From Phycisphaeraceae bacterium (GTDB lineage: Bacteria; Planctomycetota; Phycisphaerae; Phycisphaerales; Phycisphaeraceae), in assembly GCA_963674705.1 (NCBI GenBank), contig OY771506.1:1760001-1824000 (forward strand): DNA of 64,000 nt, read 5' to 3'. A program made the position numbers and the translations under genes. Numbering within the stretch: position 1 is the stretch's first letter; each line of letters opens with the position of its first letter. Shown here piece by piece: positions 40,482-61,664 of the stretch. Under the pieces are notes generated by a model. The model saw only the letters and a program-made list of their open reading frames with translations, did no database searches and was not told the origin of the DNA.

Positions 40482-41672
40482 ATGCGACTGACTCGGCTGA
40501 TGCTGCTGGCCTTGTTCATCGTTCTGGCGACGCCGGTCTTCTGGGAGGCGCAGCACTGCGCGTTCGGCTGAGGCGGTGGGTCGGGAGGATCGATCCGCCG
40601 TAGCGGTTCATCGATCCGTCTCACCTCTTCCGGTCGGAAGAGCTCCTCGAAACCAGAGTTGTCACAGGACCGGCGCGATAAGTGCGAACGTATGCTCGAC
40701 CTTGCCGAGCGCATGCTGTCCAATGACCGCCTGCCCGATGCGTATCGCTACGTCATGATCGCAGAGTCCATCGGCAAGTCCGACAGCAGTCTGCTCAGCA
40801 AAGTCAAGCAAACAGCGAACAACGTCAAGACCGCTGCCGAAAAGAAACTCGATGCGGCCGAACAATTCTACGAAAACGAGCAATACACCGAAGCGATCGA
40901 AGCCTACTCAAGCATCTCCGGCCTGCGCAAGCTCGATGTCGCGCGAGATGCGCGGATGAAACTTGCAGAGATACAGCGCAACCCCGCTGTCCGCGCAAGC
41001 ATGCGTGAGATCAGGGCCTGCCAACGGCTTGAAGATGTGCTCGAGATGATCGATATCACCAACATGGATATCGAAGTTGTCGACGACAGCGAACTGGAAA
41101 CCTGCAGCAGCGATGAAACGCTGCCAAGTCTTGCGATAGGGGACCAGGGCAACGACAGCCACGAATACGCGATCTTCGGCTCCGCACCCGCACAATTGGG
41201 CGACACGCAAACCGGCGCAAGCAACACGCAAAGCGGGTCATCGCACGACTACGCCGCATTCCCGTCGGCAGCCGCGTTCGCCGCGGCAAGCCCGCTGCCC
41301 GCTGAATCCGTCGAAGAAATGGAAGAGCTTGGCCTGTCTGAAGTAGAAGTTGCGCTGCTCTTGATTATTTGCGATCGCATCAAGTTCCTCGACAAACTCG
41401 AAGCCGTCGCCGACAACTACAGCGACACCAAGTCAGGCCAACGCGCACGCGACCTGGCGAACGACCTGCGTGCCTGCGATGCGTTTATGGACGGCCTGGA
41501 ATACCACCGCACCGAAGAACATGCCATGGAATACATCTCCATGGCCAAGCAATATGAACAGATCGGCAAGACCGACCTCGCGATCAAGTTCTACAAAGAT
41601 GCCATCCTCACCTGCCCGGATAGCGAATGGAGCAAAGCCGCCCAGGACGGGATCGATCAACTGAATAACTGA
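40482..41672 (+). CDS. Exported helical/TPR-like protein, predicted selenoprotein (UGA at 40569-40571, codon 30)
   Basis: GAGGTG SD and ATG at 40482, signal peptide MRLTRLMLLALFIVLATPVFWEAQHCAFG, TGA, then an open frame continuing into the track's 40659 ORF; strong hairpin after the UGA. Confidence 0.75.
40572..40626 (+). promoter_or_regulatory. SECIS-like hairpin
   Basis: GGATCGAT(40587-94)/ATCGATCC(40610-17) stem, CCGC/GCGG upper stem, CGTA loop 27 nt after the UGA. Confidence 0.65.
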
Positions 41673-41947
41673 TCAACAGTCACAAGCAATACCGGGTGTC
41701 GCACCTTGTTCGGTAGAACAAGGTGTGTTTTATATGAAGATGATTTAGCCACAGATGAACACAGATAAACACGGATGAAGGCGCCTGTATTACGTAGCTA
41801 TACAGTTATGTTGTGTGTTAATAGCACATTTGATTTCACTCCCTCTCCCCGCGGGAGAGGGCCGGGGTGAGGGCCGTATGTCATGTTGTGAACAATCGAG
41901 CAAATAACGCTTAATCAATCCAGCCCTCATCCTTGCCTTCTCCCGAG

Positions 41948-42934
41948 GCAACAAATTCGATCTACGCCCAAAAGTCTTGCCAAATAAACAGTTCGCCCTC
42001 ATGCTGGCGGTTTTGATCACGTTCCTTTGGCAAGGAGGCCAGCGATGGAAGGCGAACTGTGGGATCAACTGTATCACTGGGTGAAGACGGAGGCCAGCCG
42101 GTGGCCGCGCAGGCGGCGGGTGTGGTTCAGCGACGCGTGGATATTGCTCGTGTATCTCTGGTCGGTGCTGCACGATCGGCCTCAAGGCTGGGCCTGTCAA
42201 TCGCGGCACTGGCAGGCGTCGTTGTTGCGGGCCCGGCCGCTACCCAGCGTCTCGCGTTTGAGTGAACGGCTGCGTCAACCGTCACTGCGTCTGTTGTTTG
42301 AAGCGGTGATGCGTGAAGCACGCACGCATCTGCCGACGCGGTTGATCAAGTGCATCGACGCCAAGCCGCTGCCGGTCGGCGGTTACAGCAAAGACCGCGA
42401 CGCGAAGTGGGGCCAGGCCGCACGCACGAAAGCCCGAGGATACAAGCTGTTTGCGATCTACGAAGGCGCAGCGGTCGACAGCTGGCGGATCGGACCGATG
42501 AACGCATCGGAAACCTTGGTCGGCCGACAACTGCTACGCGAAGCGGCGCGTTACGGCGGCGGTTACCTGTTGGGCGACGGCTTGTATGACGCTAACCCTT
42601 TGCACGCTGTTTGTCATCAACACGAATTACAACTGGTTGCGCCCCGCAAACGACCGGGCACCGGGTTAGGTCATCAACCGCATGAGCCGCCGCGTCTGCG
42701 TTCGATCGAACTGCTGGAAGGTGGCGGTGTGTTTGGCCAAGCGTTGTTCGCTTGTCGCATCGGTATCGAACAACGCCTGGCCCAGGCCGGCAACCTCGGC
42801 TGCGGCTTAAGCCCGTTACCCAACTGGGTCCGCCGCCCCCACCGCGTCGCCGCTTGGATCGCAGCGAAGCTGCTGATCCTTACCGGCTGGAACTATAAGA
42901 AACAGACACTTACAGCGTAGATCGAATTTGTTGC
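41948..42934 (+). mobile_element. Complete insertion sequence, 987 bp, 20-bp perfect TIRs, 3-bp TSD (GAG)
   Basis: GCAACAAATTCGATCTACGC at 41948-41967 and its reverse complement at 42915-42934; GAG at 41945-41947 and 42935-42937. Confidence 0.93.
42045..42920 (+). CDS. DDE transposase (IS4/IS5-like superfamily)
   Basis: IDAKPL, DRDAKWG, GYKL, LLGDGLYD, RIGIEQ; AAGGAGG SD; stop codon lies inside the right TIR. Confidence 0.9.
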   Translation: MEGELWDQLYHWVKTEASRWPRRRRVWFSDAWILLVYLWSVLHDRPQGWACQSRHWQASLLRARPLPSVSRLSERLRQPSLRLLFEAVMREARTHLPTRLIKCIDAKPLPVGGYSKDRDAKWGQAARTKARGYKLFAIYEGAAVDSWRIGPMNASETLVGRQLLREAARYGGGYLLGDGLYDANPLHAVCHQHELQLVAPRKRPGTGLGHQPHEPPRLRSIELLEGGGVFGQALFACRIGIEQRLAQAGNLGCGLSPLPNWVRRPHRVAAWIAAKLLILTGWNYKKQTLTA

Positions 42935-43057
42935 GAGGGGAGAAGGGAGGAAGTTAATCCGATATGTGCATATATATGTACAAATGAAGCATCTGATTTG
43001 CAGCAGCATCTTTGATCATCTGTCTTTATCTGTGTTCATCTATGGCTAAATAACAAT

Positions 43058-43852
43058 TCAAAAAACCCGCTCCACCGCACCCGCCGCGATCAGCGCCGCA
43101 CCCAGCGCACCTGTGATCTGTGGCGTCTTGGGCATCACGATCTGCTTTTCAATCGCGTCGCTTAGCATCTTGTCCATCCTGTTGACGCGCGCTACGCCGC
43201 CGGTGAAAACGACGGGCTCTTTCAAGCGGTGTCCGCCCATGCCGGCGATGCGTCTTGAGATCGCGATCTGCACGCCTGCCGCGATATCACTTGGCTCATG
43301 ACCCGACGATAACAGGCCGATGATTTCCGTCTCCGCGAACACCGCACACATGCTCGATATCGTCGAGGGTTCTTTGCTTTGCGATGCGAGTTTGCCCAGC
43401 TCTTCAAGGTCTACATCCAAACGCTTGGCGACCATTTCAAGAAAGCATCCCGTCCCCGCGGCGCAGCGGTCGTTCATCGTAAAGTCTTCAACGCGCCCGC
43501 TTTCATCCAGGTGAATGACTTTCGAGTCCTGCCCGCCGATCTCGATGATCGATCTTGCATCGGGCAAAAGCATGCGTACGCCGCGCGCGTGGCAGGTGAT
43601 CTCGGTTACAGCTTTATCCGCAAAATCCAGCAGGTGGCGTGCGTATCCGGTCGCGACAACCGCTTCAATATCATCCAGAGACCTGTCGGCATCTTTGACC
43701 ACACGCTCGTACAACGCGCGCGACCGTTGTGCCTGGTTCGTCTGCGAATCATCAACGCCGCTTGCCAGAATCTCCGGCCCCTGGCCGTTCACCTCCAGCA
43801 ACACCACCTTGATGCTGCGCGAACCCGCATCGATACCCGCAAATAACATCAC
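43058..43852 (-). CDS. Acyl-CoA dehydratase activase (ASKHA ATPase, HgdC/BadF-like)
   Basis: GIDAGSRSIK, ATGYAR, EITCHARG, EIGGQDSK, NDRCAAGTG, SMCAVFAETE, FTGGVA. Confidence 0.93.
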   Translation of the reverse strand: MMLFAGIDAGSRSIKVVLLEVNGQGPEILASGVDDSQTNQAQRSRALYERVVKDADRSLDDIEAVVATGYARHLLDFADKAVTEITCHARGVRMLLPDARSIIEIGGQDSKVIHLDESGRVEDFTMNDRCAAGTGCFLEMVAKRLDVDLEELGKLASQSKEPSTISSMCAVFAETEIIGLLSSGHEPSDIAAGVQIAISRRIAGMGGHRLKEPVVFTGGVARVNRMDKMLSDAIEKQIVMPKTPQITGALGAALIAAGAVERVF

Positions 43853-45246
43853 TGCCTCCGCCCTCGCGCGGTTTCCATCAACGCCTCCAACCGCGTCCTC
43901 AGTGCCGGACGAACCGCATCAATCACAGTCGGCACCTCTACTTCAACAACAGGCAATCCCAAACCGTCACGCACCATCTTACCAATCACCTCGCCTTCAA
44001 ACGCACAGTGACTTGCGCCGGGGATTCGGCTGACGATCACCGCCTCGCAGCCGAACTTCTGAATCTCACGACAGATCATCCGCGCTCGATCGGCGGTCGG
44101 CCCAACCATCGGATCGCCCAGCGCCGTTCTCGCCAAGGCTTCAAAGGGTTCGACATCATCGGGGATCTGAGAAAGCGCGTGACAGAACATGTAATCCGTC
44201 CCGCTGATCCGCCCGCCGACTTCCTCAAGCAGGTTCATCACCTGAAGGTCCGCAACAGGATTCACCCAGAACACCCTGACCGCATCACCATCCAACACGC
44301 TGACATTCTGGTCAACGCGTCGCCTCGCCTCGGTTAGCAGTTCATCCAGCACCTCTACAGTCTGCTCGTAGTCGGAACAGTAATGTAGCGCAAGCATCTC
44401 CACTATGAGCATCTCAAGAGCGGGTAGCGGACACGGGTCGGAGGTATAAACCAGTTGCCGAAGCGAGCTGATCTTCTCGCGAACGGTGTTGGCTTTTCTT
44501 ATGCCCTCGGATAACTTGGCGCCGGTTAACGTTTGGCCCGTTGCTTTCTCGATTTCACCGGCAACACGCCTTAATTCATTACGCACCAAGTCGACTTGCG
44601 ATGATGCCGCGGTGAATCCGCTTGGTAATCGAACAGATGTTTCGTTAGCGCCCGCCAGTCGGCGCGGCGGCACTTCCCACCACAAGACCGGGTGTCCCAT
44701 CGCCTCGACGCGCTGCGCGATCGCGGAAAAATCATCGCACACCGCGCCGACGCTGCAGATAAGCAGGTCGGGTGTCGGGAAGTGGTTGCCCGTTTCAAAC
44801 GCGCCGACCATCGCACGCACCGGGCAGAACGATTCATCAATGCCCAGTTTATCCGCGACGCGCAGCAACCCCGCGCTGTGCTGCATCACGCACGGTATCC
44901 ACCACGCGCCGTCCGGATAGAACGTGGCCACGTTATCCAACGCGTACGCCATCACCGGCACCGTGCCCAGGTCCTTCATCGCGCCGATGATCGTCCGCCC
45001 GGCCTCGCGATCGGCCTGCAAACGATCTTCTTCACTCAATAGCAGATTCCACAATCGAAGCGCTGCCGGCGAATTGTCAAAACGCAACGACGCAAGACGC
45101 AGATCGCCATCCTCAAAGTGCCTGCCTAACGGGCCGTTGTAATCCGGGCCTGGCATCCCGGCTTTATATAAGCATTCGTAGCGTTCATCCCACTGCTGAA
45201 GCGTGATTGATTTAGGCTCATCCGAGATGTTGTGTTTCTCGTTCAT
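43849..45246 (-). CDS. 2-hydroxyacyl-CoA dehydratase family Fe-S protein
   Basis: FCPVRA, VCDDF, SHCAFE, LRTRLEALME; ATGA/TGATG coupling at both ends. Confidence 0.8.
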   Translation of the reverse strand: MNEKHNISDEPKSITLQQWDERYECLYKAGMPGPDYNGPLGRHFEDGDLRLASLRFDNSPAALRLWNLLLSEEDRLQADREAGRTIIGAMKDLGTVPVMAYALDNVATFYPDGAWWIPCVMQHSAGLLRVADKLGIDESFCPVRAMVGAFETGNHFPTPDLLICSVGAVCDDFSAIAQRVEAMGHPVLWWEVPPRRLAGANETSVRLPSGFTAASSQVDLVRNELRRVAGEIEKATGQTLTGAKLSEGIRKANTVREKISSLRQLVYTSDPCPLPALEMLIVEMLALHYCSDYEQTVEVLDELLTEARRRVDQNVSVLDGDAVRVFWVNPVADLQVMNLLEEVGGRISGTDYMFCHALSQIPDDVEPFEALARTALGDPMVGPTADRARMICREIQKFGCEAVIVSRIPGASHCAFEGEVIGKMVRDGLGLPVVEVEVPTVIDAVRPALRTRLEALMETARGRRQ

Positions 45247-46328
45247 CGCAACATCTCCAGGAATGCCGCGATGCGTCCCTCTGCGCGTTCGCATGTGGTG
45301 GCATCGACATCAAGGTCGATATCAATCACGGGGATCGGCGACAGTTGCTTGATGCGGTGCACCTCCGCGTGCCAGAGATCGCACCACAGACTTCTGCGCA
45401 GGATGATGCCTTTTACGTTGGTTTGTTTGATCGCATTAAGCAGCCAGTCGAAGAAGCGATCGTTCGGCCGTTGACGGATGTGCGGGATCTGCTGATAGGC
45501 GCTTGCCATCGCCTCGAACGGATCGTTATCGATCAGCGATTGGTCGATCGGTTCGGGCAGGCCGCGCTGGCCGTAGTCCGTTGCATCAAGCGCGACGTGG
45601 CCGCCGTGCTGCTTGATTGTGTCGAACAGCCACCACTGATAGCGAGGCAGCTCGGAACCAAGCAGGGCGATGGGGGTAGCAGATGAGTCCCGTGACTCCG
45701 TGGCGCGGGGTGCCACACTTTGACCCGAAGGGCAAAGTGTGTCTTCATGAGCACACTTTGCTGCTGCGCAGTCAAAGTGTGGCACCCGAGGCGCGCGATG
45801 CGCGTGTTCGGGTTTACCGTTGGTGTCACCATGCATTGCAGCTAAAGCCGTAGCGCGTTCCCGGCCGGTCATCGTTTGAAGTTGCATGCGGACGTCTTCT
45901 CGCTTGACTTCGTAAGCGATCAAGATGCTTTTCAAACGACCGGGCGTCGGTGATGTGCCGCCGATGGATTCGAGAAAGTTCCCGAGTCGATGCAGTTCAT
46001 CGCGATAACAACGCTGCGCTGATTCGCTCTGCCAGGTGGCCGGGATGTGCAGGAGCATTGTTGGTGTGTGATGCCTGCCGGGTGTATTCAATGCTTCACT
46101 GGAGCGTCGCAGTTGATCGCATATCGAAGCGACGATCACCGCTGCGACATTCTCGTGCATGGTTGCCTGTGTGATATACACCTGCGACCATGTGCAGCAC
46201 CCATCAACCGATATGGGTGCGCGGTTCTCATTGAATGGTTTGTGGTTGCACGGGCGGAACGGTTGAAAACCATGCGCCTCGATCCACTCGGGAGGGATGT
46301 ACGCCGAGTTGTAGCAGATTCGCTTCAT
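45243..46328 (-). CDS. 2-hydroxyacyl-CoA dehydratase family subunit carrying an in-frame repeat insertion
   Basis: YIPPEWIEAHG, SICDQLRR, WCDLW, GRIAAFLEML. Confidence 0.8.
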   Translation of the reverse strand: MKRICYNSAYIPPEWIEAHGFQPFRPCNHKPFNENRAPISVDGCCTWSQVYITQATMHENVAAVIVASICDQLRRSSEALNTPGRHHTPTMLLHIPATWQSESAQRCYRDELHRLGNFLESIGGTSPTPGRLKSILIAYEVKREDVRMQLQTMTGRERATALAAMHGDTNGKPEHAHRAPRVPHFDCAAAKCAHEDTLCPSGQSVAPRATESRDSSATPIALLGSELPRYQWWLFDTIKQHGGHVALDATDYGQRGLPEPIDQSLIDNDPFEAMASAYQQIPHIRQRPNDRFFDWLLNAIKQTNVKGIILRRSLWCDLWHAEVHRIKQLSPIPVIDIDLDVDATTCERAEGRIAAFLEMLR

Positions 46329-46349: not shown

Positions 46350-47591
46350 CTATGTTGGCTGTGCTGTCGGTCTTGTATTCACCATTTCGAACAATGCTTC
46401 AAGCCGTACCGCGATGCGCTGGCTGTCCGCCGGGGCGTAGTCTGTGACGATCTTCATGTAGGGCAAGCCGAAACGTTCTTCGCTCTGCTGCTTGAGTAGC
46501 GCCGCTTCGACTTCATAGGTCAGGCAGCCCTGCCAGATCAGTTCGACGATGCAGTCGGGTTTGTAGTCGTCAATCAACTTCTCGATCATGTCGAATCGCA
46601 ACGTGTTCGGCGTCATGACAGAACAGGGCAGGTGGAAGTACTTCTCAGCGAGCGCTTCCATCGGATCGGCGTCTTCACGCACATCATCAAGGATGGGTTT
46701 AAGCCCGGTGCAGTTTTCCATCGCAACGATGCGCCCACCGTTATCTTCGATCAGGTCGACGACGCGCTCCGCGCCGTGCGCGATGGGCACACCCGTGACG
46801 AGTACGCGCACTTCCCGGTTCTTGCTAGAAGTTTCGCCGCAGCATTCGGCGCTACCGAGCTTATCAAGGATGGTTTGATACTCGGCAAGGTCTTCGCATA
46901 TCCCGCTGATACTGCTCTTGAGATTAAGTAACTGTCGGCCGGTTAATGGCGGATTATCACGTTTCATCAATGCAGCAAGTTCGCGACGCAGGCGGCGCTC
47001 CTTGTTCATCAGCTCGATCGCGTCGCGGATCTTTTCATCCGTGATCTTGGTGTTGAACTGCTGTTCGAGTTTGGTTTTCAGTTTGTTCAGTTCGATGCGC
47101 CAAAGCGCAAGCGAATCGGGGTCGTCCGGCTTCTGTGGCAATTCAAGGATGTAGACCGGGCGAGATTCGGCCATCAGTTCGTACATCTTCTTCTTGCCGT
47201 CGCAGGTTGTTTCGGCAACGATGAGGTCCGCCATCTCGAGGAACGGATTGTTCTTCTGCATGTGATAGCCGAACGTGCTCTTGATAAGCGGGCACAACCC
47301 GGCGGGCAGAACGGACTCGGCGGCGAGCGCGGTTGTGTGTGATCCGCCACACAAACAGACGGGCACGGCTCCGGCGGCGAGGATCAATTCGCGTGGCGTG
47401 AACTCGCAGAGGATGCCGACGATCGGTTTACCATCGGCCTTGGCTCGCTCGGTGTAGGCCAAGCAGTTTTGGATCATATGGTCAAATCGGCAGGCGTTGG
47501 CGGCCGGGTTATCCACCACTGTTTGGGCGCACGCGTCTGTCGCGTTTGAGGTGCATGCGCACGGATTTGAACTCGGGCAGCAGTCGCTCAT
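46350..47591 (-). CDS. 2-hydroxyacyl-CoA dehydratase family protein, double-cubane-cluster reductase-like
   Basis: LCEFTPRELILAAGAVPVCLCG, LCPLIKS, ETTCDGKKKMYE, MENCTG, LPCSVMTPN, RLEALFEM; Cys-rich N-terminus. Confidence 0.85.
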   Translation of the reverse strand: MSDCCPSSNPCACTSNATDACAQTVVDNPAANACRFDHMIQNCLAYTERAKADGKPIVGILCEFTPRELILAAGAVPVCLCGGSHTTALAAESVLPAGLCPLIKSTFGYHMQKNNPFLEMADLIVAETTCDGKKKMYELMAESRPVYILELPQKPDDPDSLALWRIELNKLKTKLEQQFNTKITDEKIRDAIELMNKERRLRRELAALMKRDNPPLTGRQLLNLKSSISGICEDLAEYQTILDKLGSAECCGETSSKNREVRVLVTGVPIAHGAERVVDLIEDNGGRIVAMENCTGLKPILDDVREDADPMEALAEKYFHLPCSVMTPNTLRFDMIEKLIDDYKPDCIVELIWQGCLTYEVEAALLKQQSEERFGLPYMKIVTDYAPADSQRIAVRLEALFEMVNTRPTAQPT

Positions 47592-47593: not shown

Positions 47594-48403
47594 TCAGGCC
47601 TCCCGTTTGTGCGCGATGAAGCGCGCCTGGATGATCCGCTTCTCGTGCGCCAAGGTGCGCACAAACCCAAGCTCGCCGGCGATCTGCTGTAGCAGCGATT
47701 GATCGAAGCCGATGATCTTCAGCGCATCGTACGTCAGTTGTTTACTGACCATATCTATATAAAGATCGACATGCGGCGGGAACTGGCCGGTGTCGTCGGC
47801 TTCGAGGACGTCGCAGTTGTTGGCTTCAAGCAGATGCCGATAGTCATCGCATGTGGCGAAGGAGGGGAACTTCATGAAGGCGAGGAAACGCTGGGCCTGC
47901 TCATCAGACAAGCCGGCGGGGCCCTCGCACCAGTCGGTGAAGGCGATGGTGCCCCCGGGCTTGATAAGGCGAGTGGCTTCTTTTATAAGCGATGGTTTAT
48001 CATCAACATAGCACCACGCGTCCTCGCCCCAGACAAAGTCGAATTGCCCGTCGGGCAGGCCGGTATCGATCGCCTTGGCGAGTATGAACGTGGCCCGATC
48101 GGCGTAGCCCTCGTCGGCGCAGCGTTGCTTGCCGAGGTCGATCATGGCCGAGGTCATGTCGACGCCATGCATCCTGTCGACATCGCGGAATCGAAGCAGG
48201 AACCGCATGCCCGCGCCGCTGCAGCAGCAGAGGTCGACGCCGGTGGTTTGGGGCTTGATTTGGGCCTTTTCAGCGAGATGCATGGAGGAAGTCAGCCCGC
48301 CGATGTGGATCTGCTCGCCCATAAGCAGTTCCCAGAGCTTGCCTTCGGCCCCGCTGTAGACAGTTTGGATGTCGGATGATTGGATCGAGTCAAGTGAACG
48401 CAT
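47594..48403 (-). CDS. Class I SAM-dependent methyltransferase
   Basis: IHIGG, motif I VDLCCCSGAG, GVDMT, FDFVWGEDAWCY, IKPGGTIAFTDW. Confidence 0.9.
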   Translation of the reverse strand: MRSLDSIQSSDIQTVYSGAEGKLWELLMGEQIHIGGLTSSMHLAEKAQIKPQTTGVDLCCCSGAGMRFLLRFRDVDRMHGVDMTSAMIDLGKQRCADEGYADRATFILAKAIDTGLPDGQFDFVWGEDAWCYVDDKPSLIKEATRLIKPGGTIAFTDWCEGPAGLSDEQAQRFLAFMKFPSFATCDDYRHLLEANNCDVLEADDTGQFPPHVDLYIDMVSKQLTYDALKIIGFDQSLLQQIAGELGFVRTLAHEKRIIQARFIAHKREA

Positions 48404-52510: not shown

Positions 52511-52652
52511 TTTAGCCACGAAAAGGCACAGAAGACACAAAAAGAGCTGGGTATTGGAATCTTTGGAAGCAGGGATATTCAGGCGGGTTTTCTGCGATAT
52601 AAAGATTATGAGATGGGGCTCGTTTTGTGTCTTCTGTGCTTTTTTGTGGCTG
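52511..52652. repeat. Inverted pair of repeat family D (TTAGCCACGAAAAGGCACAGAAGACACAAAA)
   Basis: Forward copy at ~52512, reverse copy at ~52623-52652; other copies near 59763 and 61788. Confidence 0.75.
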
Positions 52653-52789
52653 AAGTTCTGCTCTGCTTTTTGCCAGAAAAATGCACAAGAATCACAAAAG
52701 GGCGGGTGTTTGGAATCCGCGGAGCTTGGATTCATCAAGAGTACAAGTCTGTGTGTTCAACTTGGTATTGATTGAACTGTATGAAGATC

Positions 52790-52995
52790 GCCCCATAGGG
52801 GCGTCGGGTTGTAGCCACGGGTCTAGCGAAGCGTAACCCGTGGAAGTTAGTGTTATACATTTTACGTCGCCCCGGAAGGGGTGAAGGCGGTGTTCCTGCC
52901 ATCCCTGTCGGGGCGGAGCGGATTTATCACTATCTCATATCCACGGGTTACGCTGCGCTGCACCCGTGGCTACATGCTGTAACCCCTTCGGGGTA
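52790..52995. repeat. Composite inverted REP-like element
   Basis: tagccacgggt...cgtaacccgtgga near 52812 and tccacgggttacg...cacccgtggcta near 52940, with CGCCCC..GGGG hairpins. Confidence 0.65.
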
Positions 52996-53188: not shown

Positions 53189-54604
53189 GTGACATCAGCG
53201 ATACATCGTGATCTGCTTCGACAGTTGCCTTCGGTTAATGATCTGCTGGCTGATGCGCGGACGGTCGCGTGGCTGGCGGAGCATCCAAGGGAGCTGGTGA
53301 CGGACTGCCTGCGTACGGCGGTGGATACGCTGCGCGAGCAGATCCTTTCCGACCAGGCTGGGCGGTGCGGGGTTCAGCATGTCAATATGGAATCGGTGCT
53401 CGACCGTGCGGAGGCCGAAGTCGCGAAGCGCACTTCGCCGAACATGCACGCGGCGATCAACGCGACGGGGATCATCCTGCATACGGGGTTAGGCAGAGCG
53501 GTGTTGCCAGCCCGCGCGGTCGAAGCGATCGGGCAGGAGTTGAAAGGTTACGTCACGCTTGCGGTCGACCGCGAGACGGGCGAGCGGATCAACCGCGACC
53601 AGATGGTCGAATCACTGCTATGCGAACTGACCGGCGCGGAGGCGGCGACGGTCGTGAACAACAACGCGGCGGGGACGATGCTCGTGCTTGCGGCGCTTGG
53701 CGCGGGGCGTGAAGTGATCGTTTCGCGTGGTGAGCTTATTGAGATCGGCGGCGCGTTCCGCCTGCCTGACGTGATGGCGCAGAGCCAGTCGAAGATGGTG
53801 GAGGTCGGCACGACAAACCGCACGCACCTGCGCGATTACGAAAACGCGATGACGGAAGACACGTCGCTTTTGTTTAGAGCGCATCCGAGTAATTACCGGA
53901 TCGTCGGATTTACGAGCGCGGTACCGATCGAATCGCTGGCGGAGCTGGCGCATGGGCGCGGGCTTGCGGTGGTGGATGATCTTGGCGCGGGGGCGTTGGT
54001 GGGGTTGGAGAAGTTTGGATTGCCGCACGAGCCGACGATGCGTGAATCGATCGAAGCCGGTGCGGATATCGTGCTGGCGAGTACGGATAAACTGATCGGT
54101 GCGGGGCAGGGGGGCGTGATCGTCGGCAAGAAAGAACTGATAAAGAAGATTAGAAAACATCCTCTAGCGCGTGCGATGCGTGTAGATAAGACCTGTTTGA
54201 TGGCGCTTGAGCGTACGCTGCCGCTATTCAGGGATATCAAGCTATTGAAGCGCGAGCATCCGACGTACATGATGCTGTCGTCGCCGATGGAAACATTGAC
54301 CGAGCGTGCGGAAGCGCTGGCGGCCGCGATCCGAAAGGTGTTGGCGACTGCTGAGGTCGAGGTTTGCGAGGATGTGGGATATCTGGGGTCGGGTTCGCTG
54401 CCGAGCGAGGCGCTACCTTCGATGGCGGTGCGTTTGCGCGTGGCTTCGATGAAGGTTGCGCATCTAGCCAAGGCGCTTCGGCTTGATGATGCGTGTGTGT
54501 TTACGCGTGTGACGGATCAGACAGTGGTGATGGATACACGCACGATCACGGATGAACAGGTGGAATTGATCGCCGCCGCGGTGAAGCGGTGCGTGGGATC
54601 GTGA
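53189..54604 (+). CDS. selA: L-seryl-tRNA(Sec) selenium transferase
   Basis: INATGIILHTGLGRA, VVNNNAAG, SRGELIEIGGAFRLPDVM, EVGTTNRTH, HPSNY, DLGAG, STDKLIG. Confidence 0.96.
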   Translation: MTSAIHRDLLRQLPSVNDLLADARTVAWLAEHPRELVTDCLRTAVDTLREQILSDQAGRCGVQHVNMESVLDRAEAEVAKRTSPNMHAAINATGIILHTGLGRAVLPARAVEAIGQELKGYVTLAVDRETGERINRDQMVESLLCELTGAEAATVVNNNAAGTMLVLAALGAGREVIVSRGELIEIGGAFRLPDVMAQSQSKMVEVGTTNRTHLRDYENAMTEDTSLLFRAHPSNYRIVGFTSAVPIESLAELAHGRGLAVVDDLGAGALVGLEKFGLPHEPTMRESIEAGADIVLASTDKLIGAGQGGVIVGKKELIKKIRKHPLARAMRVDKTCLMALERTLPLFRDIKLLKREHPTYMMLSSPMETLTERAEALAAAIRKVLATAEVEVCEDVGYLGSGSLPSEALPSMAVRLRVASMKVAHLAKALRLDDACVFTRVTDQTVVMDTRTITDEQVELIAAAVKRCVGS

Positions 54605-54763: not shown

Positions 54764-56707
54764 ATGCCTGATAAACATAAGAACATCATGCTTGGTACGG
54801 CCGGTCACGTCGATCACGGCAAGACGTCGCTGGTGAAGCTGCTGACCGGTTGTGATACGGATCGATTAGCTGAAGAAAAACGGCGCGGCTTGACGATCGA
54901 GCTCGGCTTTGCGCCATGCAAGATGACGGACGATCGGATCGTCGGCATCGTGGATGTGCCGGGGCATGTTTCTTTTATCCGGCACATGGTCGCGGGGGCG
55001 CATGGGGTTGATGTGATCATTCTTGTGGTTGCTGCGGACGACGGTGTGATGCCTCAGACGCGCGAGCATCTGGATGTGATGACGTTGATGGGGGCGCGTC
55101 GTGGGTTGGTTGCGCTGACGAAGATCGATCTTGTTGATGAAGAAATGCGCGAGCTTGCGATAGAGGATGTACGCGGCGCGTTGGCGGAGACGTTTTTAGC
55201 TGATGCGCCGATCTGCCCGGTATCGAACGTGACGGGCGAAGGGTTTGAAGGATTTTTCAAGGCACTGGATGAGCAGGTCGCGGCGTGCGAGCCGCGCGTT
55301 TCGTTTGGGCCTTACCGGCAGTGGGTGGAGCGGTCGTTTATCGCGCATGGTTTTGGCGTGGTCGCGTCGGGGATACCGACGACGGGGGAATTGAAGGTTG
55401 GGGAGTATGTGCGTGTTTTGCCGGGCGATCTGAAGCTTCGCGTACGGGGGCTGCAGGTGTATGGCGATGATGCGCAGGTCGCGCGGTTGGGCGAATGCGC
55501 TGCGGTGAACCTGGCGGATGTGGACCTGGAACGTTTGCCGCGCGGCGTGGTGTTGACGACCTCGACGACGCTTGGCACGGTATCGCAGTGCGCGGCACGT
55601 TTGCGGACGCTTGGGCGCTCGAAGCGAGCGCTTCGTGACGGGACAGAGGTGCATCTGCATGTAGGGACGGAGTATGTGCAAGCGAAAGTGATTGCGCTGG
55701 AAGGGGGTCCGATCGAACCGAGCGATGAAGCGCTGGTGCAGTTGCGATTTGAACGGGAGTTACCGGTTTCGCCGGGCGATCGGTTTGTTGTAAGGACGCA
55801 TGTTGAAGAAGCCGGCGGCTTGACGACGATCGGCGGGGGCGTGGTGCTGGACACGACGGATAAACGTATGCGGCGGAAGCGCGTGGAGGTATTGGAGCCT
55901 TTAAAGAAGCGTGAGGCGGCGCTGGGTGATCCGGCGGCATGGTGTTTGGCGCTGCTTGAGGAGGTGGAAGAGTCGATGACGGTGGAAGCGCTAGTGGAGC
56001 GCGCGGTGTTGCTTGAATGCGAGGTTGAGCCGGCGCTTGATGCATTGAAGCAGCGAGAGGATGTGGTGGCGCTGGATGATCGGCGCGTGTTGGCGAAGCG
56101 CGTGATCGAACGCGCGGGCGAGAAGATTGTTGAGCGGTTGCGTGAAGAGCATGCGGCGAATCCTGATAAGTTCGGCTTGACGACAGCGATATTGGTTAAC
56201 GCGCTTGAAATGGATGGGGATGTTGCTGCGAATGCGGTGGCGGGGTTGTGCGATAGCGGCACCATGACGCGGCAGGGGGAGTTGCTTGCGCTGGCGGAGC
56301 ATCGGCCTGCGATCAGCGCGGCGGATCAGAAGTTGCTTGATGCGATAGTTGATCTATATAAGAAGGATCACTTCGCGGCGAAGCGGCCGAGCGAGGCGGC
56401 GGAGGCGCTGGGCGAGCCGATGAAGCGCGTGCAGCCGATGGTGAAGATGCTGATCGAGCGTGGGGATCTGGTGAAGCTGACAGACCAGATCGTGATGCAT
56501 CGTGACGCGGTCACGGCGGCGGTGGGCGTGGTGCGGGATTTGTTTGAGAAGTCAGAGCGCTTTTCTACGGCCGAATTCCGCGATGCGCTGGGCGCAAGCC
56601 GTAAGTATGTAATCCCCTTGCTTGACTATTTTGACCACGAACGTCTGACGATCCGCCACGGCAGCGAGCGAAAGCCCGGGGCAAAGTTGCGGGAAGAGGT
56701 CGGCTGA
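54764..56707 (+). CDS. selB: Selenocysteine-specific elongation factor
   Basis: GTAGHVDHGKT, EEKRRGLTIELGFA, DVPGH, MPQTREH, TKID; C-terminal winged helix FRDALGASRKYVIPLLDYFD. Confidence 0.97.
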   Translation: MPDKHKNIMLGTAGHVDHGKTSLVKLLTGCDTDRLAEEKRRGLTIELGFAPCKMTDDRIVGIVDVPGHVSFIRHMVAGAHGVDVIILVVAADDGVMPQTREHLDVMTLMGARRGLVALTKIDLVDEEMRELAIEDVRGALAETFLADAPICPVSNVTGEGFEGFFKALDEQVAACEPRVSFGPYRQWVERSFIAHGFGVVASGIPTTGELKVGEYVRVLPGDLKLRVRGLQVYGDDAQVARLGECAAVNLADVDLERLPRGVVLTTSTTLGTVSQCAARLRTLGRSKRALRDGTEVHLHVGTEYVQAKVIALEGGPIEPSDEALVQLRFERELPVSPGDRFVVRTHVEEAGGLTTIGGGVVLDTTDKRMRRKRVEVLEPLKKREAALGDPAAWCLALLEEVEESMTVEALVERAVLLECEVEPALDALKQREDVVALDDRRVLAKRVIERAGEKIVERLREEHAANPDKFGLTTAILVNALEMDGDVAANAVAGLCDSGTMTRQGELLALAEHRPAISAADQKLLDAIVDLYKKDHFAAKRPSEAAEALGEPMKRVQPMVKMLIERGDLVKLTDQIVMHRDAVTAAVGVVRDLFEKSERFSTAEFRDALGASRKYVIPLLDYFDHERLTIRHGSERKPGAKLREEVG

Positions 56708-56750: not shown

Positions 56751-58073
56751 ATGGTGGACAGTTGCCGCGGCGGTTTTGCCGTGATTCCGAAAGGGTTTTT
56801 TGTGATTGTATTACGCCGATTAGCCGCTGCGATGTTGCTGGCCGGCGGTGTAATTGTGTGTGCGGATGTGCAGGCGGAAATCAGTTTCCGTGCTGCTGAC
56901 CCGAGGGCGACGTTATGCCACGCGCCGCGTGTGGTGGATACGTTCACAGCATCATCGGCGGGGAGGCTGAGCAGTTCGGCGGTGGTGGGGACATTGAATA
57001 CACATTACGGGCCTATCCATGTCGCGATCGATCCGCGCGGCACGAGTGAGCCTTACAACGTGACGTTTGATTTCACCGGCACGGGCAGGTTTGAAGACCC
57101 GACCGAGGTGCGCGTCATCGCACGCAAGCATGGCGACTACTTCTGGGGTGAGTTGACGCCGACGGTCGTGGAACTTTCACGTGGCGGGCATAAGATCAGC
57201 GTCGGCATCATGGGGATGGTGTATCGCTCAAGCGACAGCCAATCGGTCGATGTGATGTTCGGCGCCATGATGGAAACGTCGTGTGCGTTCGGCTCGCAGA
57301 CGCTTGATGTCGACATTATGGACGGCGATCAGAACTTCTACTTTGGTGATAAGTCAGCAAAGCGCGGGTTCAAGGTCGAGGTCGGCGACACACTGGTTGT
57401 GCATAAGGACAATCAACGGTACATGGTTTTGGTCGGCCAGCCGGTGCAGATCGATGGTGCGTGGTACGACATCGTCGTGCATGAAGATTATTCACTTGAA
57501 GCGAAGCCTGTGAATATCACGGTGGGCAAGTTACAGATCGATAAGGGCGACTGGTCCGCGATCTTTGTCGGCAGGCGGTATGTCTGCGGCGCAAAGGGTG
57601 GGACGGAGGCGGTCACGCTGCCGGCTGATTCTTACACCATCGTGCGCTACGATGAACGCAGCGGCACCGCGATGGTGTCGTGTCAGAGTGATAACGGCCC
57701 GAGCGCGTCGGTGCAGGCTGGACAGACGGCGCAGGTGAGTATCGGCACGCCGATCGCGGGCATCCCGGTCATGTTCCAGCAGGGCGATACCGTCAGCATC
57801 CGCGCGAAGATGATCGATTCAAGCGGGATGAACGTGACGGAACTTCGGCTTGAAAGTGGATTGCGTCCGGAGCCGCCTGTCGTGGCGGTGTTTGATAGTA
57901 GCGGTCACGTGCTGCATCAGGCCGCACTGGAATATGGGTGAGGTGGCATATGTTCGCACTCATGGCGGGTGCCATCCAATGCAGGCCGGGGCGGATCGCT
58001 GACAGCGGTCATGAAGTACGAGGCGAAGCCGTTCACGGTCAAGCTCGGACGGACGGACTTCAACGTGCGCTGA
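56751..58073 (+). CDS. Exported protein, predicted selenoprotein (UGA at 57939-57941; LEYG-U-GGIC)
   Basis: Lies between selB and selD; signal-peptide-like N-terminus (true start may be ~56802); frame continues 43 codons past the TGA; motif and hairpin shared with the 48564 gene. Confidence 0.85.
57956..57972 (+). promoter_or_regulatory. SECIS-like hairpin (apical part)
   Basis: GCACTC(57956-61)-ATGGC-GGGTGC(57967-72); same loop and same 20-nt distance from the UGA as at 49814. Confidence 0.8.
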
Positions 58074-58167: not shown

Positions 58168-59748
58168 ATGAAAATTGACTACACCAAGCGACGCCAGGTG
58201 ATGGCCCGATCGCGCAAGCTCGGGCATTGTATTTGTGATCCACGCAGGCCTTGCCCGTGCGATGTGTTTACCGAGCAGGGCATCTGCCCCTGTGCCGGGG
58301 AAAGGCCGGACCCGATCCCCGCCGATCAGGTGAAGCTGACGGACCTGGTGCGCAACGCAGGTTGTGCATCGAAGATTGCGCCGGGCGATCTGGATACGGT
58401 GTTGTCGCGCTTGCCGGAGATCACGGACCCGCGCGTGTTGTGCGGCGTCGCGGCGGGGGACGATGCGGGTGTGTATCAACTCGATGGCGAGTGCCTGGTG
58501 CAGACGGTTGATGTGATGACGCCTTGCGTAGACGATGCGCGGATGTTCGGGCGGATATGCGCCGCCAATTGCGTGTCGGATATTTATGCGATGGGCGGGA
58601 CACCACGTTCCGCGCTGAGCGTTCTTGCTTTCCCGACAGAAACGCTTTCCGGGCAGATCATGTACGAGATGATGAGCGGCGCGATGGAAGTGCTGGCAGA
58701 AGCAGGTGTCGCGCTGATCGGCGGGCACAGTATCAAGGACGAGCAGATCATGCTCGGCTTTGCGATCACCGGCACGATCGACCCGAAGCGCGTCACACAG
58801 CGCGGCACCGCGCGCGTCGGCGATGTCCTGGTACTGACCAAACCGCTAGGCACGGGCGTATTGAACTTTGCACGCCAGATCGGTAGAGCGCCGCAGGAAG
58901 GTTTAGCACAAGCGGAAACCTCAATGGCGACGCTTAACCGTGCGGCCGCGGAAGCCATGGTGCAATGCGATGCCTCTGCATGCACGGACGTCACCGGTTT
59001 TGGTTTGTTCGGCCACCTCGCGGGCATGGTCCGTCACTCCAAAGTCACCGCCGAGATCGACCTGGATACGCTTCCTTCTTTCGATGGCGCACTCGATCTG
59101 TTGGCAAGCGGCATGATCCCCGGCGCGGTCGAGCGTAATAAAGAATACGTCGGCGATGATATTATTTTTGCCGAAGATGTGGATGAACCACGCCTGCACC
59201 TCGGATTCGATGCGCAGACGTCGGGTGGTTTGCTGATCGCGGTCGAGCCGAAGCACGTGGATGAATTGCTAAAAATGCTATCCGCTGATGGCGTGACGGG
59301 ATACGCTGTCGGGCGAATCACCGAAAAGTCGGACGGCCGGATTGTGGCTCAATCCATGGGGGCGACGGTCACAACGCCGGCGGCAAACGAAGCCGAAGAA
59401 GTTGTCGCTTCGCACGCTGCCGTGCAAACACACGAAGCTGTGCCCGTCGGCATCGGTGAATCCCGCCGCGCGTTCGGCGCATTGATGCGCTCGACATCGC
59501 AGGCCGGCACGATCGATGAGAAGACCAAGACACTGATCAACATCTCCCTCGTGACATTGCAGCGCTGCGGCCCCTGTTTGAAGTCACACCTCGGCAAGGC
59601 ACAAAAACTGGGCATCGATGAGAACCGCATCGATGAAGCCATCTGGTGCGCGATAGCGATGGGCGGCGCGTGCGTGAAGGTGTTTTATGATGAGTTTAAG
59701 CAGAATGAATCCGGCGGGGGTGATGGTGGAGTGTATTCGTGTTGTTGA
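58168..59748 (+). CDS. selD: Selenophosphate synthetase (Cys form) with a Cys-rich N-terminal extension and a C-terminal CMD/AhpD-like domain
   Basis: AGCASK, DDAGVY, QTVD, ANCVSDIYAMGG, GGHS, LTKPLGTG, TDVTGFGLFGH, DAQTSGGLL; extra terminal domains read from the translation. Confidence 0.95.
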   Translation: MKIDYTKRRQVMARSRKLGHCICDPRRPCPCDVFTEQGICPCAGERPDPIPADQVKLTDLVRNAGCASKIAPGDLDTVLSRLPEITDPRVLCGVAAGDDAGVYQLDGECLVQTVDVMTPCVDDARMFGRICAANCVSDIYAMGGTPRSALSVLAFPTETLSGQIMYEMMSGAMEVLAEAGVALIGGHSIKDEQIMLGFAITGTIDPKRVTQRGTARVGDVLVLTKPLGTGVLNFARQIGRAPQEGLAQAETSMATLNRAAAEAMVQCDASACTDVTGFGLFGHLAGMVRHSKVTAEIDLDTLPSFDGALDLLASGMIPGAVERNKEYVGDDIIFAEDVDEPRLHLGFDAQTSGGLLIAVEPKHVDELLKMLSADGVTGYAVGRITEKSDGRIVAQSMGATVTTPAANEAEEVVASHAAVQTHEAVPVGIGESRRAFGALMRSTSQAGTIDEKTKTLINISLVTLQRCGPCLKSHLGKAQKLGIDENRIDEAIWCAIAMGGACVKVFYDEFKQNESGGGDGGVYSCC

Positions 59749-60253
59749 ATGGGTGAAAAGAATTAGCCACGAAAAGACACAGAATACACAAAAAGGGCTG
59801 GGATTTGTGTCTTTGATAGCCGCATTGCGATGCTATGCGGCGGTAACAGAAGTTGTTGAGCATTTGGGATAACGTCGCGGCGATCTGCGAACGTACGCTA
59901 CTCGGGAGGGTATAGCCGCGACCAGTGGTCGCGCAGGTATTGTGTTTGTTGAATGTGAAGAGCGCGACCGATGGTCGCGGCTATACAGGCGGTTGGAAAT
60001 GGCGAATGCACGAATGTCGAATGACGGATTACAAATGACGAGTGTGTGAGTAGGTCATTTGGCATTTGTCATTTGAGCATTCTTTCGTTATTCGACATTC
60101 TTTAATCGTGCATTTCAAGCACTCAGGCCCTCACCCCGGCCCTCTCCCGAGGGGAGAGGGGGTAGATGCATATAACATTGTGTGAACAGCCCCACGCGGG
60201 AGCGTGGTGTTAATTACCCGACCAGGATGGTCGGGCTATATCTAATGCAGTTG

Positions 60254-61114
60254 TTATTTGCCGGGCACGGGTTGGGGTGGGTTTGCTTCTGGGGTCTTCG
60301 GGGTTTTGCCGGCGACAGTCAGTGTGATGGCGGGGCAGTTGGTGCATTCCATGCAGCGGATGCAGGATGCGTTGTTGATGGATTGATCGAGTTTGACATC
60401 GTACTTGCATCGGCTGCGGCAGAGGTTGCATTCGGTGCACTTGGGGGCGTTGTAGTGCAGGTAGAGGAGGCTGAATCGGTTGAAGATCGCGAAGATGCCG
60501 CCGAGCGGGCAGAAGATTCGGCACCACGGGCGGTAGGTGAAGAAAGCTAAGAAGAGGACGACGCCGGTGACGATGAGTTTGATCGTGTTGGGGATGAACA
60601 GTTGTCCGCGATAGATTGATTGGCCAAGCGCGGCTTCGAGCGCGCCGGCGGGGCAGACGTTACAGAAGAAAAGCGGGTGTTCGTCGCCGAAGAAGAAGGG
60701 GATGAGCAGGACGAGTCCGATGAGCGTGACGAATCGGCCGTAGCCTAGCCAGCTTGGGATGGAGTATTTGGGTGTGGGGATTTTCCCGAGCAGGTCCTGG
60801 AAGAAGCCGAAGGGGCATGCCCAACCGCAGACGGCTGTGCCGAAGATCCCGCCGACGGTGATCAGCACGCCGAGGATCATCAGCGGCCACATGTGCATCG
60901 CGGCGAACTGCGACATGAGCCCAATCGGGCAAGCGACTGTTGCGAGCGGGCATGCGTAGCAGTGGAAGACGCAGCCGGGCACGGAATGCCAACGCAGTAG
61001 AAGTGGGTCGAGCCAGACAGCGAGAAAAGCGGTCTGCACCCAGGGGCGTAGTTTGCCGAGGTTCAGTCGGCGACGGGGGATGTTTGGTTTGGATGATTCG
61101 GCCATGGCACGCAT
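60254..61114 (-). CDS. Membrane 4Fe-4S binding protein (NapH/MauN/CcoG-like)
   Basis: CYACP, CGWACPFG, FCNVCPAG, WCRIFCPLG, CTECNLCRSRC, CIRCMECTNCP; TM helices. Confidence 0.9.
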   Translation of the reverse strand: MRAMAESSKPNIPRRRLNLGKLRPWVQTAFLAVWLDPLLLRWHSVPGCVFHCYACPLATVACPIGLMSQFAAMHMWPLMILGVLITVGGIFGTAVCGWACPFGFFQDLLGKIPTPKYSIPSWLGYGRFVTLIGLVLLIPFFFGDEHPLFFCNVCPAGALEAALGQSIYRGQLFIPNTIKLIVTGVVLFLAFFTYRPWCRIFCPLGGIFAIFNRFSLLYLHYNAPKCTECNLCRSRCKYDVKLDQSINNASCIRCMECTNCPAITLTVAGKTPKTPEANPPQPVPGK

Positions 61115-61136
61115 GACCCGGCGGGGGTCACTTCAC

Positions 61137-61511
61137 TCACGTCGGGCAAAAATCGTTCGGGGTCGTTTCGCCAGACTTCTTCGCGTCTTGCGGGCCCTGA
61201 TCCGTAAGCGCGTCGGCCTGATCACCCAGGAATTGTTGGATCGCCAGATCGAGTTCTGATTTTGGTGGTGGCGGCGGCGGTGGTTTGCGTGGTCCGCCGA
61301 CGGTGACGGCTTGAATGAGCTGCCCTTCCGAGAGGACGACCTTGCCGTCGTTGAAGATATCGTGCTTGCGGGTGGTGGCGAAGCCCGCCAGCGCGATGCC
61401 GATGATGACAAGCATTGCGGCGACCCACCACGAGCGTGTGCCCGAGGGATGGCCCCACTTGTCGATGGGCGGCTGTGGCTTGATCCGCATTTTTTTCTTT
61501 TTGCGTGCCAC
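61137..61511 (-). CDS. Small single-TM protein ending CPT-TGA (possible CxxU; readthrough would end at 61128)
   Basis: GTG start after GAAAGG; basic N-terminus, TM helix, Pro-rich linker; lies between tRNA-Sec and the 4Fe-4S gene. Confidence 0.75.
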   Translation of the reverse strand: MARKKKKMRIKPQPPIDKWGHPSGTRSWWVAAMLVIIGIALAGFATTRKHDIFNDGKVVLSEGQLIQAVTVGGPRKPPPPPPPKSELDLAIQQFLGDQADALTDQGPQDAKKSGETTPNDFCPT

Positions 61512-61571
61512 CGGTAAAACGCCTTTCAATGCACGGCTGCAACGTGTCAATACACGCGCGGCCTGCGGGAA

Positions 61572-61664
61572 CGGAGGTGCATGGGAATCGAACCCACCCG
61601 GGACCGTTAAAGCCCCACACTGGTTTTGAAGACCAGGAGCGTCACCAGACCGCCGATCACCTCC
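61572..61664 (-). tRNA. selC: tRNA-Sec (anticodon UCA)
   Basis: GGAGGTGA TC GGCGGTCTGGTGACGCTC CTGGT CTTCAAA ACCAG, long variable arm, GTGGG TTCGATT CCCAT GCACCTCC G; CCA not encoded. Confidence 0.96.

Follow-up and report, generated by a model that had tools for sequence, protein, structure and literature searches.

A conserved selenium gene system in Phycisphaerae and Verrucomicrobiota-labelled genomes in which a double-cubane reductase alternates with a thiol-rich importer

In a 64,000-nucleotide stretch of the Phycisphaeraceae bacterium assembly GCA_963674705.1 (contig OY771506.1, positions 1,760,001 to 1,824,000; hereafter the window), the genes for selenocysteine (Sec) synthesis and insertion lie together with four predicted UGA-recoded genes, an ATP-driven Fe-S reductase operon and a polytopic 4Fe-4S membrane protein between positions 40482 and 61664. 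This gene set belongs to a conserved system that is present in two phyla, and the either-or of a double-cubane cluster protein (DCCP), encoded in the operon, and a thiol-rich ATP-binding cassette (ABC) importer among its carriers is unexpected. We propose that the region is a selenium system whose parts are inherited together: the Sec machinery would serve four predicted surface selenoproteins, and the operon would be a replaceable module that supplies selenium to SelD. To this reading we assign a probability of roughly 0.45. The genome that holds the window (G000) is a single contig of 5.54 Mb, 96.6% complete, whose relatives are labelled Phycisphaerae. The features on which the argument rests are as follows, in window coordinates.

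40482-41672, plus strand: gene A, predicted exported tetratricopeptide-repeat (TPR) protein with N-terminal QHCAxGUGG (CxxxU), TGA at 40569-40571
43058-43852, minus strand: ATP-dependent activase of the HadI/HgdC/DCCP-reductase type (PF01869)
43849-45249, minus strand: dh1, HgdA/B-family Fe-S subunit with a divergent Cys/His-rich site (PF06050)
45243-46328, minus strand: dh2, HgdA/B-family Fe-S subunit with three invariant Cys (PF06050)
46350-47591, minus strand: DCCP (NF040772, 418 bits, cut-off 350)
47594-48403, minus strand: S-adenosylmethionine (SAM)-dependent methyltransferase with DLCCC in the SAM-binding loop (Methyltransf_11)
48564-49967, plus strand: gene B, predicted exported all-beta selenoprotein, EYGUGGTC, TGA at 49797-49799
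49814-49830, plus strand: selenocysteine insertion sequence (SECIS) hairpin of gene B, 6-bp stem, ATGGC loop
50048-52450, plus strand: gene C, predicted exported CarboxypepD_reg-repeat protein with a C-terminal ResA/TlpA-like domain (PF13620)
53189-54604, plus strand: selA (TIGR00474, 518 bits, above cut-off)
54764-56707, plus strand: selB (TIGR00475, 306 bits, above cut-off)
56751-58073, plus strand: gene D, second member of the YG-U-GGxC family of gene B, TGA at 57939-57941
57956-57972, plus strand: SECIS hairpin of gene D, the same hairpin as in B
58168-59748, plus strand: extended SelD, Cys form (TIGR00476, 339 bits; TIGR00778)
60254-61105, minus strand: polytopic NapH/CcoG-like 4Fe-4S membrane protein (Fer4_5, PF12801)
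61128-61550, minus strand: small single-pass membrane protein with a CPT-U-VK end (CxxU), TGA at 61137-61139, start codon uncertain
61572-61664, minus strand: selC, tRNA-Sec (ARAGORN; Rfam RF01852, 71.5 bits)

A preliminary description of the region had listed most of these parts, and selA, selB, selD and selC all pass their NCBIfam or Rfam models. Its three to four UGA-recoded candidates become four (40569, 49797, 57939 and 61139), its large exported protein with a Cys-less thioredoxin-like domain is gene C, which has QRPS for CKPC, and its polytopic 4Fe-4S protein is recognized by Fer4_5. The five-gene operon, in the order methyltransferase, DCCP, dh2, dh1 and activase, starts 160 bp from the divergent gene B; it does hold the methyltransferase, three PF06050 genes and activase described, but one of the supposed dehydratases is the DCCP.

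The components are inherited together. Within a sample of 300 Phycisphaerae genomes, which are mostly fragmented and mutually related metagenome-assembled genomes, selA is present in 109, the domain carrying the YG-U-GGxC site (the Sec domain) in 58, extended SelD in 54 and dh1 in 32, and 51 genomes combine the Sec domain with extended SelD. The 32 dh1 genomes almost always carry the Sec domain (30), extended SelD (31) and selA (30), whereas dh1 occurs in just 2 of the 58 selA-positive genomes without the Sec domain. All five operon genes stand together in 22 of the 32, most others reaching a contig edge, and sel genes lie within the same retrieved stretch in 16 of them. Seeding on the methyltransferase yielded 80 metagenome loci; the 37 of at least 7 kb contain DCCP (30), dh2 (30), dh1 (25), activase (22), the Sec motif (19) and selA (12). 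Among 31 genomes chosen for the B family, 23 have dh1, including 8 of the 9 labelled Verrucomicrobiota, and in five Verrucomicrobiota-labelled genomes the operon abuts selA-selB. Thus the components, whose separate distribution the preliminary description had named as the outcome that would speak against it, are found together, and lie close together, in at least eight Phycisphaerae families and in Verrucomicrobiota-labelled genomes. The 4Fe-4S gene follows the same distribution, being found in 38 of 61 core genomes and in 1 of 50 selA-only genomes.

The absence of formate dehydrogenase, first remarked for the window, extends to the whole of G000. No formate dehydrogenase, SelU or YqeB scored over cut-off in any of five carriers (G000 and four near-complete genomes), with positive controls, and no SenB did so in G000. 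The sole PF00384 protein of G000, considered as a formate dehydrogenase, is NuoG-like. A search for GrdB gave no match, but its control gave none either, and the result carries no weight. The simplest reading is that carriers keep Sec for the new selenoprotein families.

Where Sec-domain genomes lack dh1, a porin and an SsuA-type ABC importer are frequent at their loci. The binding protein of this importer has invariant HVGHDH and HPCCC motifs (15 homologues) and no solved relative at E<=0.001, the nearest models of the subunits stay under cut-off (SaoX, 28-35 of 300 bits; SaoP, 111 of 295; SaoA, 242 of 360), and no TGA was seen in 15 permeases or binding proteins. Among the 61 core genomes, in which the modules were searched by single queries, DCCP occurs in 37, the importer in 20, both in 4 and neither in 8, five of which lack selA. 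For the 54 core genomes with selA, the table of both, DCCP only, importer only and neither reads 4/31/16/3 (Fisher p 1.6e-7), and in a within-family permutation the two are co-present in 4 genomes against 11.3 expected (p<1e-4). The alternation has the same direction in families f6, f7, f10 and f23, and the importer binding protein is present in 0 of 55 selA-only genomes. The occurrence of dh1 is nested in that of DCCP (31 of 32), DCCP stands without dh1 in six genomes, and in G029, G070 and G286 DCCP and activase alone occupy the slot. Each module is repeatedly found immediately ahead of selD or selA and in the same orientation, and where they coexist in G089, G168 and L202 they form one shared gene run. 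In importer-type loci, a small pyridoxamine 5'-phosphate oxidase-like protein is also seen upstream of selD (L221:12817-13218, L218, L220).

G000 itself carries both modules, with the importer at C1:1984883-1989305, 160 kb from the window region. There, the importer, its porin and one more gene lie between two identical 1270-nt inverted insertion sequence (IS) copies (L207:5215-14798; C1:1983214-1992797), an arrangement like a composite transposon that suggests a recent arrival. The porin resembles the selenite/tellurite porin ExtI weakly (E 1.7e-6, 27 bits, cut-off 150).

Because the mutually replacing modules often stand directly before selD or selA, they appear to serve one need of the core genomes, and since selenium supply is a need common to all core genomes, we read it as what the modules serve. 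As DCCP-less genomes usually have the importer, and the 4Fe-4S gene is independent of both modules (Fisher p 0.4-1.0), the operon would act as a supply module and would not itself feed electrons to the exported proteins. The preliminary description had proposed one system linking cytoplasmic reduction and methylation to selenol chemistry outside the cell. Its gene linkage stands, but an obligate chain from the cytoplasm to the outside is too strong a claim, dh1 being present in only 28 of the 51 selA-positive Sec-domain genomes and missing from the other 23; there is likewise no support for electrons passing directly from the operon to the exported proteins, given that the importer replaces DCCP and the 4Fe-4S gene is independent of both.

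The same alternation bears on two other explanations. Conceivably, the clustering reflects a shared selenium-dependent regulon or joint travel, the operon, importer and exported proteins being mechanistically separate. Several carriers have the pieces scattered over the genome, lone methyltransferase loci exist (L118, L159, L171), and the G000 importer, far from the window between its IS copies, would fit such an origin. Yet dh1, the importer and the 4Fe-4S gene are nearly confined to core genomes of two phyla, and mutual exclusion requires a shared function, so that we hold this explanation to be highly improbable. More serious, if still unlikely, is that the modules supply a product other than selenium, such as an organosulfur compound, a soft metal or metalloid, or a cofactor, which the operon makes or activates, the ABC system imports and the exported selenoproteins use or capture. 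The pattern is of the make-or-import type, and such alternation is typical of cofactors; a methyltransferase with three Fe-S subunits looks biosynthetic, and the vicinal Cys of the HPCCC binding protein and the CCC methyltransferase suit As, Sb, Hg and other soft ions. However, no CoA ligase, CoA transferase, efflux pump or further tailoring enzyme is found among the recurring neighbours, DCCP and activase alone suffice in the three genomes named above, and the modules are tied to selD and selA, not to the exported genes.

The activase of the operon exceeds its TIGR00241 cut-off (255 bits; cut-off 125), matches HadI (4eht, E 1.8e-58) and retains C130 and C169 in 30 of 30 orthologues. The DCCP aligns to the DCCP structures 6eno and 7yyl (E 1e-59) with its seven-Cys motif conserved (C62, C81, C100, C130, C294, C323 and C356), and its orthologues often have a variable Cys-rich N-terminal leader (CC, C-x-C) ahead of the core. 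The dh1 protein falls far under the NF040772 cut-off; C135, C157, C180, C186, H304, C306, H429 and C430 are near-invariant in 35 sequences, and 2724 clusters match it at E<=1e-40 among 8000 candidates. In dh2, C45, C70 and C316 are invariant, and dh2 adjoins dh1 in 32 of 32 genomes and is likely its partner. The nearest solved relatives of the methyltransferase are phosphoethanolamine N-methyltransferases (E 5.7e-19); CCC is present in most of 122 distinct homologues, H33, C131 and C197 are conserved, and no NCBIfam equivalog is reached (ArsM, 40 bits against a cut-off of 263). An outer-membrane barrel, DUF3034, recurs beside the methyltransferase (L165:9063-9986 and 17 other loci) and was not found in G000. 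A URO-D/MtaA-like gene lies near the operon or methyltransferase in four loci (e.g. L090:3340-4386), recalling the mlp clusters discussed below. G000 also encodes two 2-oxoacid:ferredoxin oxidoreductase-type genes, which are possible electron sources.

The SelD to which both modules are linked consists of an N-terminal CxC-x5-CxC-x8-CxC domain, the SelD core and a C-terminal AhpD/CMD domain with a CxxC motif. The six N-terminal Cys are invariant in 23 of 23 sequences and C467 and C470 in 14 of 14, while the C-terminal domain resembles AhpD domains fused to ArsM and MduS. A TGA following the C-terminal CC was considered as a further Sec site and, its read-through not being conserved, is read as a stop.

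Genes B and D are predicted to be bacterial selenoproteins on the basis of UGA conservation, homology after the UGA together with a Cys form, and a SECIS element. They share Y-G-UGA-G-G-x-C-S-x-S-W-R-x-P, their similarity continues across the UGA, and gene D matches the 96-position Sec-domain profile at E 2.7e-21. Database homologues of B number 14; 11 break off at xYG, one with Cys (P0007) reads on and two diverge earlier. The TGA motif is present in 28 of 31 related loci, the other three (L011, L016 and L024) giving no clear call, and all but two of the Sec-domain matches listed, which leave aside 24 weaker ones, contain one TGA. The SECIS stem, 18-34 nt from the UGA, is 99.4% paired with 27 double-sided changes in 29 members, and its covariation is 0.52 against 0.15 when shuffled (0 of 500 shuffles as high), in a test that is partly circular and favours itself because the members were hand-chosen for diversity and the stem was derived from the same sequences. 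Cys homologues retain CxxxC, the second Cys of the motif is retained in more than 90% of Sec-domain members, and W69 and P72 are conserved downstream. In a set of 150 distant representatives, 58 sequences stop at the UGA and many do not show the motif; Cys occupies the site in 8, and Gly, Arg, Leu, Ser or Trp, each one base from TGA, in about 15. The domain reaches a maximum of 13 copies per genome, and an expansion unusual for a bacterial selenoprotein is seen in G177, G196, G154 and G028 (9-13 matches each).

In the predicted model of gene B (pLDDT 91, all-beta), Sec would sit in a hairpin of a C-terminal Ig/FnIII-like sandwich. The comparison of this domain with Ig/FnIII-like structures (Z 8.9, rmsd 2.6, 90 residues aligned) indicates a common fold only, and a Foldseek search with the whole model gave no clear match. 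The Sec domain is followed by the protein end, by LamG or F5/8 lectin domains, or by a membrane anchor. A membrane-anchored YG-U-GGxC subfamily, in which the Sec domain is followed by about 280 hydrophobic residues, occurs at L017:7892-9955, L008:8351-9730 and about 20 other loci and was not found in G000.

Gene C adjoins B in the window, and their homologues are neighbours in 23 of 31 loci. The C-terminal domain of C matches AhpC-TSA in 21 of 28 homologous domains and ResA (4nmu) at E 6.7e-5, with QRPS aligned to the CKPC of ResA/TlpA. D42, Q45, R46, R49 and W116 are invariant, and CxxC is absent, Q-R-[PS]-[SC] taking its place in all aligned homologues. These features open the possibility that Sec in B and D is not redox-active. 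It might instead bind a partner covalently, as a selenoester or through a metal bridge, the invariant Gln of protein C being one example; or the UGA might let selenium control whether the C-terminal anchor or lectin parts are made. The modular Ig sandwich, present in so many copies per genome and followed by lectin domains or anchors, and a protein C with invariant QR at the CxxC site would suit this idea, as would a possible likeness of YG-C-G to the alpha-2-macroglobulin thioester motif. But a second Cys that persists in nearly all members, and a CxxxC kept by the Cys homologues, are as expected for a dithiol, and we see only a very slight chance that it is correct.

The other two recoded genes are likely selenoproteins as well. 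In the small membrane protein, which has one predicted transmembrane segment, C-[PA]-[TS]-TGA followed by at most three residues and a stop, upstream of the 4Fe-4S gene, recurs in 33 of 34 distinct loci (36 matches, 2 removed as edge or duplicate). Its homologues have hairpins downstream of the UGA that overlap the next start, and in the window the lowest-energy fold picked another hairpin. It has no NCBIfam match, and no Cys homologue was seen. Gene A, the weakest of the four candidates, has a hydrophobic N-terminus and weak TPR matches; the TGA and QHCAxx-UGA-GG are present in all three genomes with an N-terminal match (151 searched), and in the other two carriers, G431 and G413, gene A stands beside the operon or selA. 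Gene A is thus seen in three genomes only, and no Cys homologue was seen. Contigs from two runs of one sample, probably the window's source and not independent of it, have no variant letters at the TGAs at 40569, 49797 and 57939; the site at 61139 lies outside the stretch compared.

At none of the four UGA sites was there a Pfam or NCBIfam match. No family in the 119-family selenoprotein table of PMC13188914, as far as the accessible part of that article extends, was matched in the NCBIfam and Pfam scans, in which the presence of every model in the libraries was unchecked. The three candidate selenoprotein families (Ig-fold B/D, TPR gene A and the CxxU membrane protein) appear to be undescribed. 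A coding-score scan of G000 for further Sec genes recovered gene B alone among the known sites and a hairpin scan was noisy; owing to this weak recovery, G000 may hold other selenoproteins.

The 4Fe-4S protein contains 15 Cys conserved in 35 homologues, with two ferredoxin motifs, two CxxxCP motifs and extra CxxC motifs, and four to five hydrophobic segments. It stays below the NapH/MauN cut-offs (40 against 213-234 bits). Like DsbD or CcdA with ResA/TlpA, and like NapH/CcoG, it would offer a transmembrane reductant path to an outside thioredoxin-fold protein; unlike in those systems, the thioredoxin-fold domain here lacks both Cys, and the predicted redox sites, CxxU and UxxxC, are on other proteins.

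Combining these observations, we propose the following mechanism. A selenium compound would enter through an outer-membrane barrel (DUF3034, or an alginate-export or O/P-type porin in related loci). It would then follow one of two routes, either import by the ABC system with the HVGHDH/HPCCC binding protein or cytoplasmic reduction on DCCP by electrons energised by the activase, and the CCC methyltransferase and dh1/dh2 pair may extend this reduction to a harder, probably organic, substrate. The Cys-rich N-terminus and AhpD-like CxxC of SelD could receive and reduce the selenium and hand it to Cys66 for selenophosphate synthesis, whereupon SelA, SelB and SelC would produce the selenoproteins. 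At the membrane, the 4Fe-4S protein and its CxxU partner may carry ferredoxin-level electrons across, keeping the UGGxC hairpins of B and D reduced, much as DsbD and CcdA pass reductant across the membrane to a ResA-like outside protein. The Cys-less ResA-like protein C is a putative binding partner of B, and the exported selenoproteins would perform surface redox chemistry. In a bolder version, DCCPs would mobilise selenium for selenophosphate and the HPCCC system would be devoted to importing selenium with high affinity, the two supplying an undescribed class of Ig-fold surface selenoenzymes that are reduced via the CxxU/4Fe-4S relay and are the sole reason for Sec; this version is tentative, and we doubt that it holds in full.

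Several points weigh against the proposed selenium supply system. SAM-dependent methylation of selenium usually removes the element rather than supplying it. The alternation suits any shared product that is made or imported, not selenium alone, and selenium is a putative substrate of the modules. The 55 selA-only genomes make Sec without the importer or dh1 (DCCP was not searched there), and thus SelD has no general need for these modules. The counts come from related and fragmented genomes and single-query module searches, and the 4Fe-4S gene was not found in 23 of the 61 core genomes. Distant Sec-domain homologues exist without Sec or Cys, and the motif is lost in a Sec-domain member of a genome without selA. 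A ferredoxin:thioredoxin reductase (FTR)-like reading of the SelD N-terminus is not confirmed: the domain has three CxC motifs and no profile match, FTR (2pvd) is the last of seven Foldseek rows (E 9.9), and one further check of the likeness returned nothing. G000 has two heme-copper oxidases and is no strict anaerobe, whereas activases are oxygen-labile according to the available part of Haft and Gwadz (bioRxiv 10.1101/2022.07.06.499078). The same portion of that preprint has DCCP and a related Cys-rich ABC importer co-occurring in the SAO system, not alternating.

The region resembles an SAO neighbourhood, yet it is no member, since no Sao model reaches its cut-off. As far as the accessible account of SAO goes, both are selenoprotein neighbourhoods in anaerobe-rich lineages with a nearby DCCP and activase, a thioredoxin-fold member and an SsuA/TauA-type ABC importer with vicinal Cys in the binding protein. 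They differ in that Sec lies here in an Ig domain, a TPR protein and a CxxU membrane protein rather than in the transporter, that no MerB-like lyase or efflux pump was seen and DCCP and importer alternate, and that the Sec machinery is inside the cluster with a methyltransferase and dh1/dh2 in addition. SaoL, SaoE, SaoC, SaoT, SaoD and SaoB were all missing from the window proteins and recurring neighbours scanned, the rest of the genome not being searched. A single SAO-like pathway, in line with the model of the preliminary description, could nevertheless be imagined. In it, a metal, metalloid or sulfur compound would be captured or reduced by the exported selenols, and the operon would carry out its reduction and methylation, serving energy metabolism or detoxification. 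The methyltransferase is often immediately preceded, on its own strand, by a YG-U-GG gene (L109, L110, L114, L138, L145, L160, L162, L165 and L166), the near matches of the ABC subunits are SaoA, SaoP and SaoX, and the SelD C-terminal domain has its likeness to the ArsM and MduS fusions. Against these stand the 23 of 51 selA-positive Sec-domain genomes that lack dh1, an importer and reductase that are mutually exclusive rather than serial, and, among the window proteins scanned, the missing Sao matches and the unreached ArsM cut-off; we regard such a pathway as quite unlikely.

Other known systems offer partial precedents. The Carboxydothermus DCCP and DCCP-R (6eno, 7yyl; PMC7317905) correspond in the seven-Cys motif, family score and adjacent ASKHA activase, but here the activase is shared with a second HgdAB-like pair and a methyltransferase; PMC7317905, in the part available, lists the physiological function of DCCP as unknown. 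HadBC/HadI, HgdAB/C and BcrABCD share the PF06050 pair with three Cys ligands each and the PF01869 activase, whereas no CoA transferase or ligase is among the recurring neighbours and dh1 has extra conserved Cys and His. Against the HadBC, BcrBC and BzdNO models, dh1 and dh2 reach 17-24 bits at best (cut-offs 450-750), and by these scores they have the HadBC/BcrBC architecture and are no orthologues. Regarding DCCP, 955 of 970 strong DCCPs are in SelD genomes and a role in selenium-compound processing is suggested in the accessible text of Haft and Gwadz (bioRxiv 10.1101/2022.07.06.499078). Type I mlp clusters, proposed for selenium salvage, likewise combine a methyltransferase with DCCP and selABCD, and DCCP is provisionally tied to selenium metabolism, in the available portion of Kountz and Balskus (bioRxiv 10.1101/2023.07.31.551370); the mlp enzymes are corrinoid-dependent methyltransferases, whereas the one here is SAM-dependent class I with no corrinoid protein among the recurring neighbours. 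No paper on this cluster was found in the literature searched, the scope of which did not take in Haft and Tolstoy 2025 (mSystems), supplements and BSepDB. The families of Haft and Tolstoy 2025, which may cover related neighbourhoods, are listed in the PMC13188914 table, mostly as NCBIfam models, and the proteins here gave no match to them.

One further feature interrupts the region.

41936-42946, plus strand: insertion sequence with a DDE transposase at 42027-42920 (PF01609) and 32-nt terminal inverted repeats

It sits between gene A and the activase and is no part of the selenium system; the Phycisphaeraceae record L001 has a layout like the window's without the IS and without gene D. Long intergenic inverted repeats, REP/MITE-like and with high contig depth, lie at window positions 41743-41778, 43016-43051, 52511-52654, 52791-52993 and 59910-60116, and another such repeat is inside dh2 near 45700-45790. 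The flanks (35819-38544, 39235-39735 and 62208-63191) encode two PEP-CTERM-type proteins, mraZ and, just past selC, a sigma-54 activator. Elsewhere in G000, about 30 tRNA genes cluster on one strand (C1:about 622000-635000), and a second ARAGORN tRNA-Sec call (C1:708446-708537), which has no Rfam match at E<=1, is read as spurious.

Taken together, the region contributes three candidate families of selenoproteins, all cut short at the UGA by standard annotation, and it offers an explanation of why genomes without formate dehydrogenase retain the Sec machinery. Section 4 of PMC13188914, within the part of the article available, states that a dedicated prokaryotic selenium transporter is not identified; the alternation between DCCP and importer makes both such a transporter and the role of DCCP testable. 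Judging from record titles, the hosts occur commonly in anoxic sediments, in peat and in digesters, and the system may thus bear on selenium and metalloid cycling.

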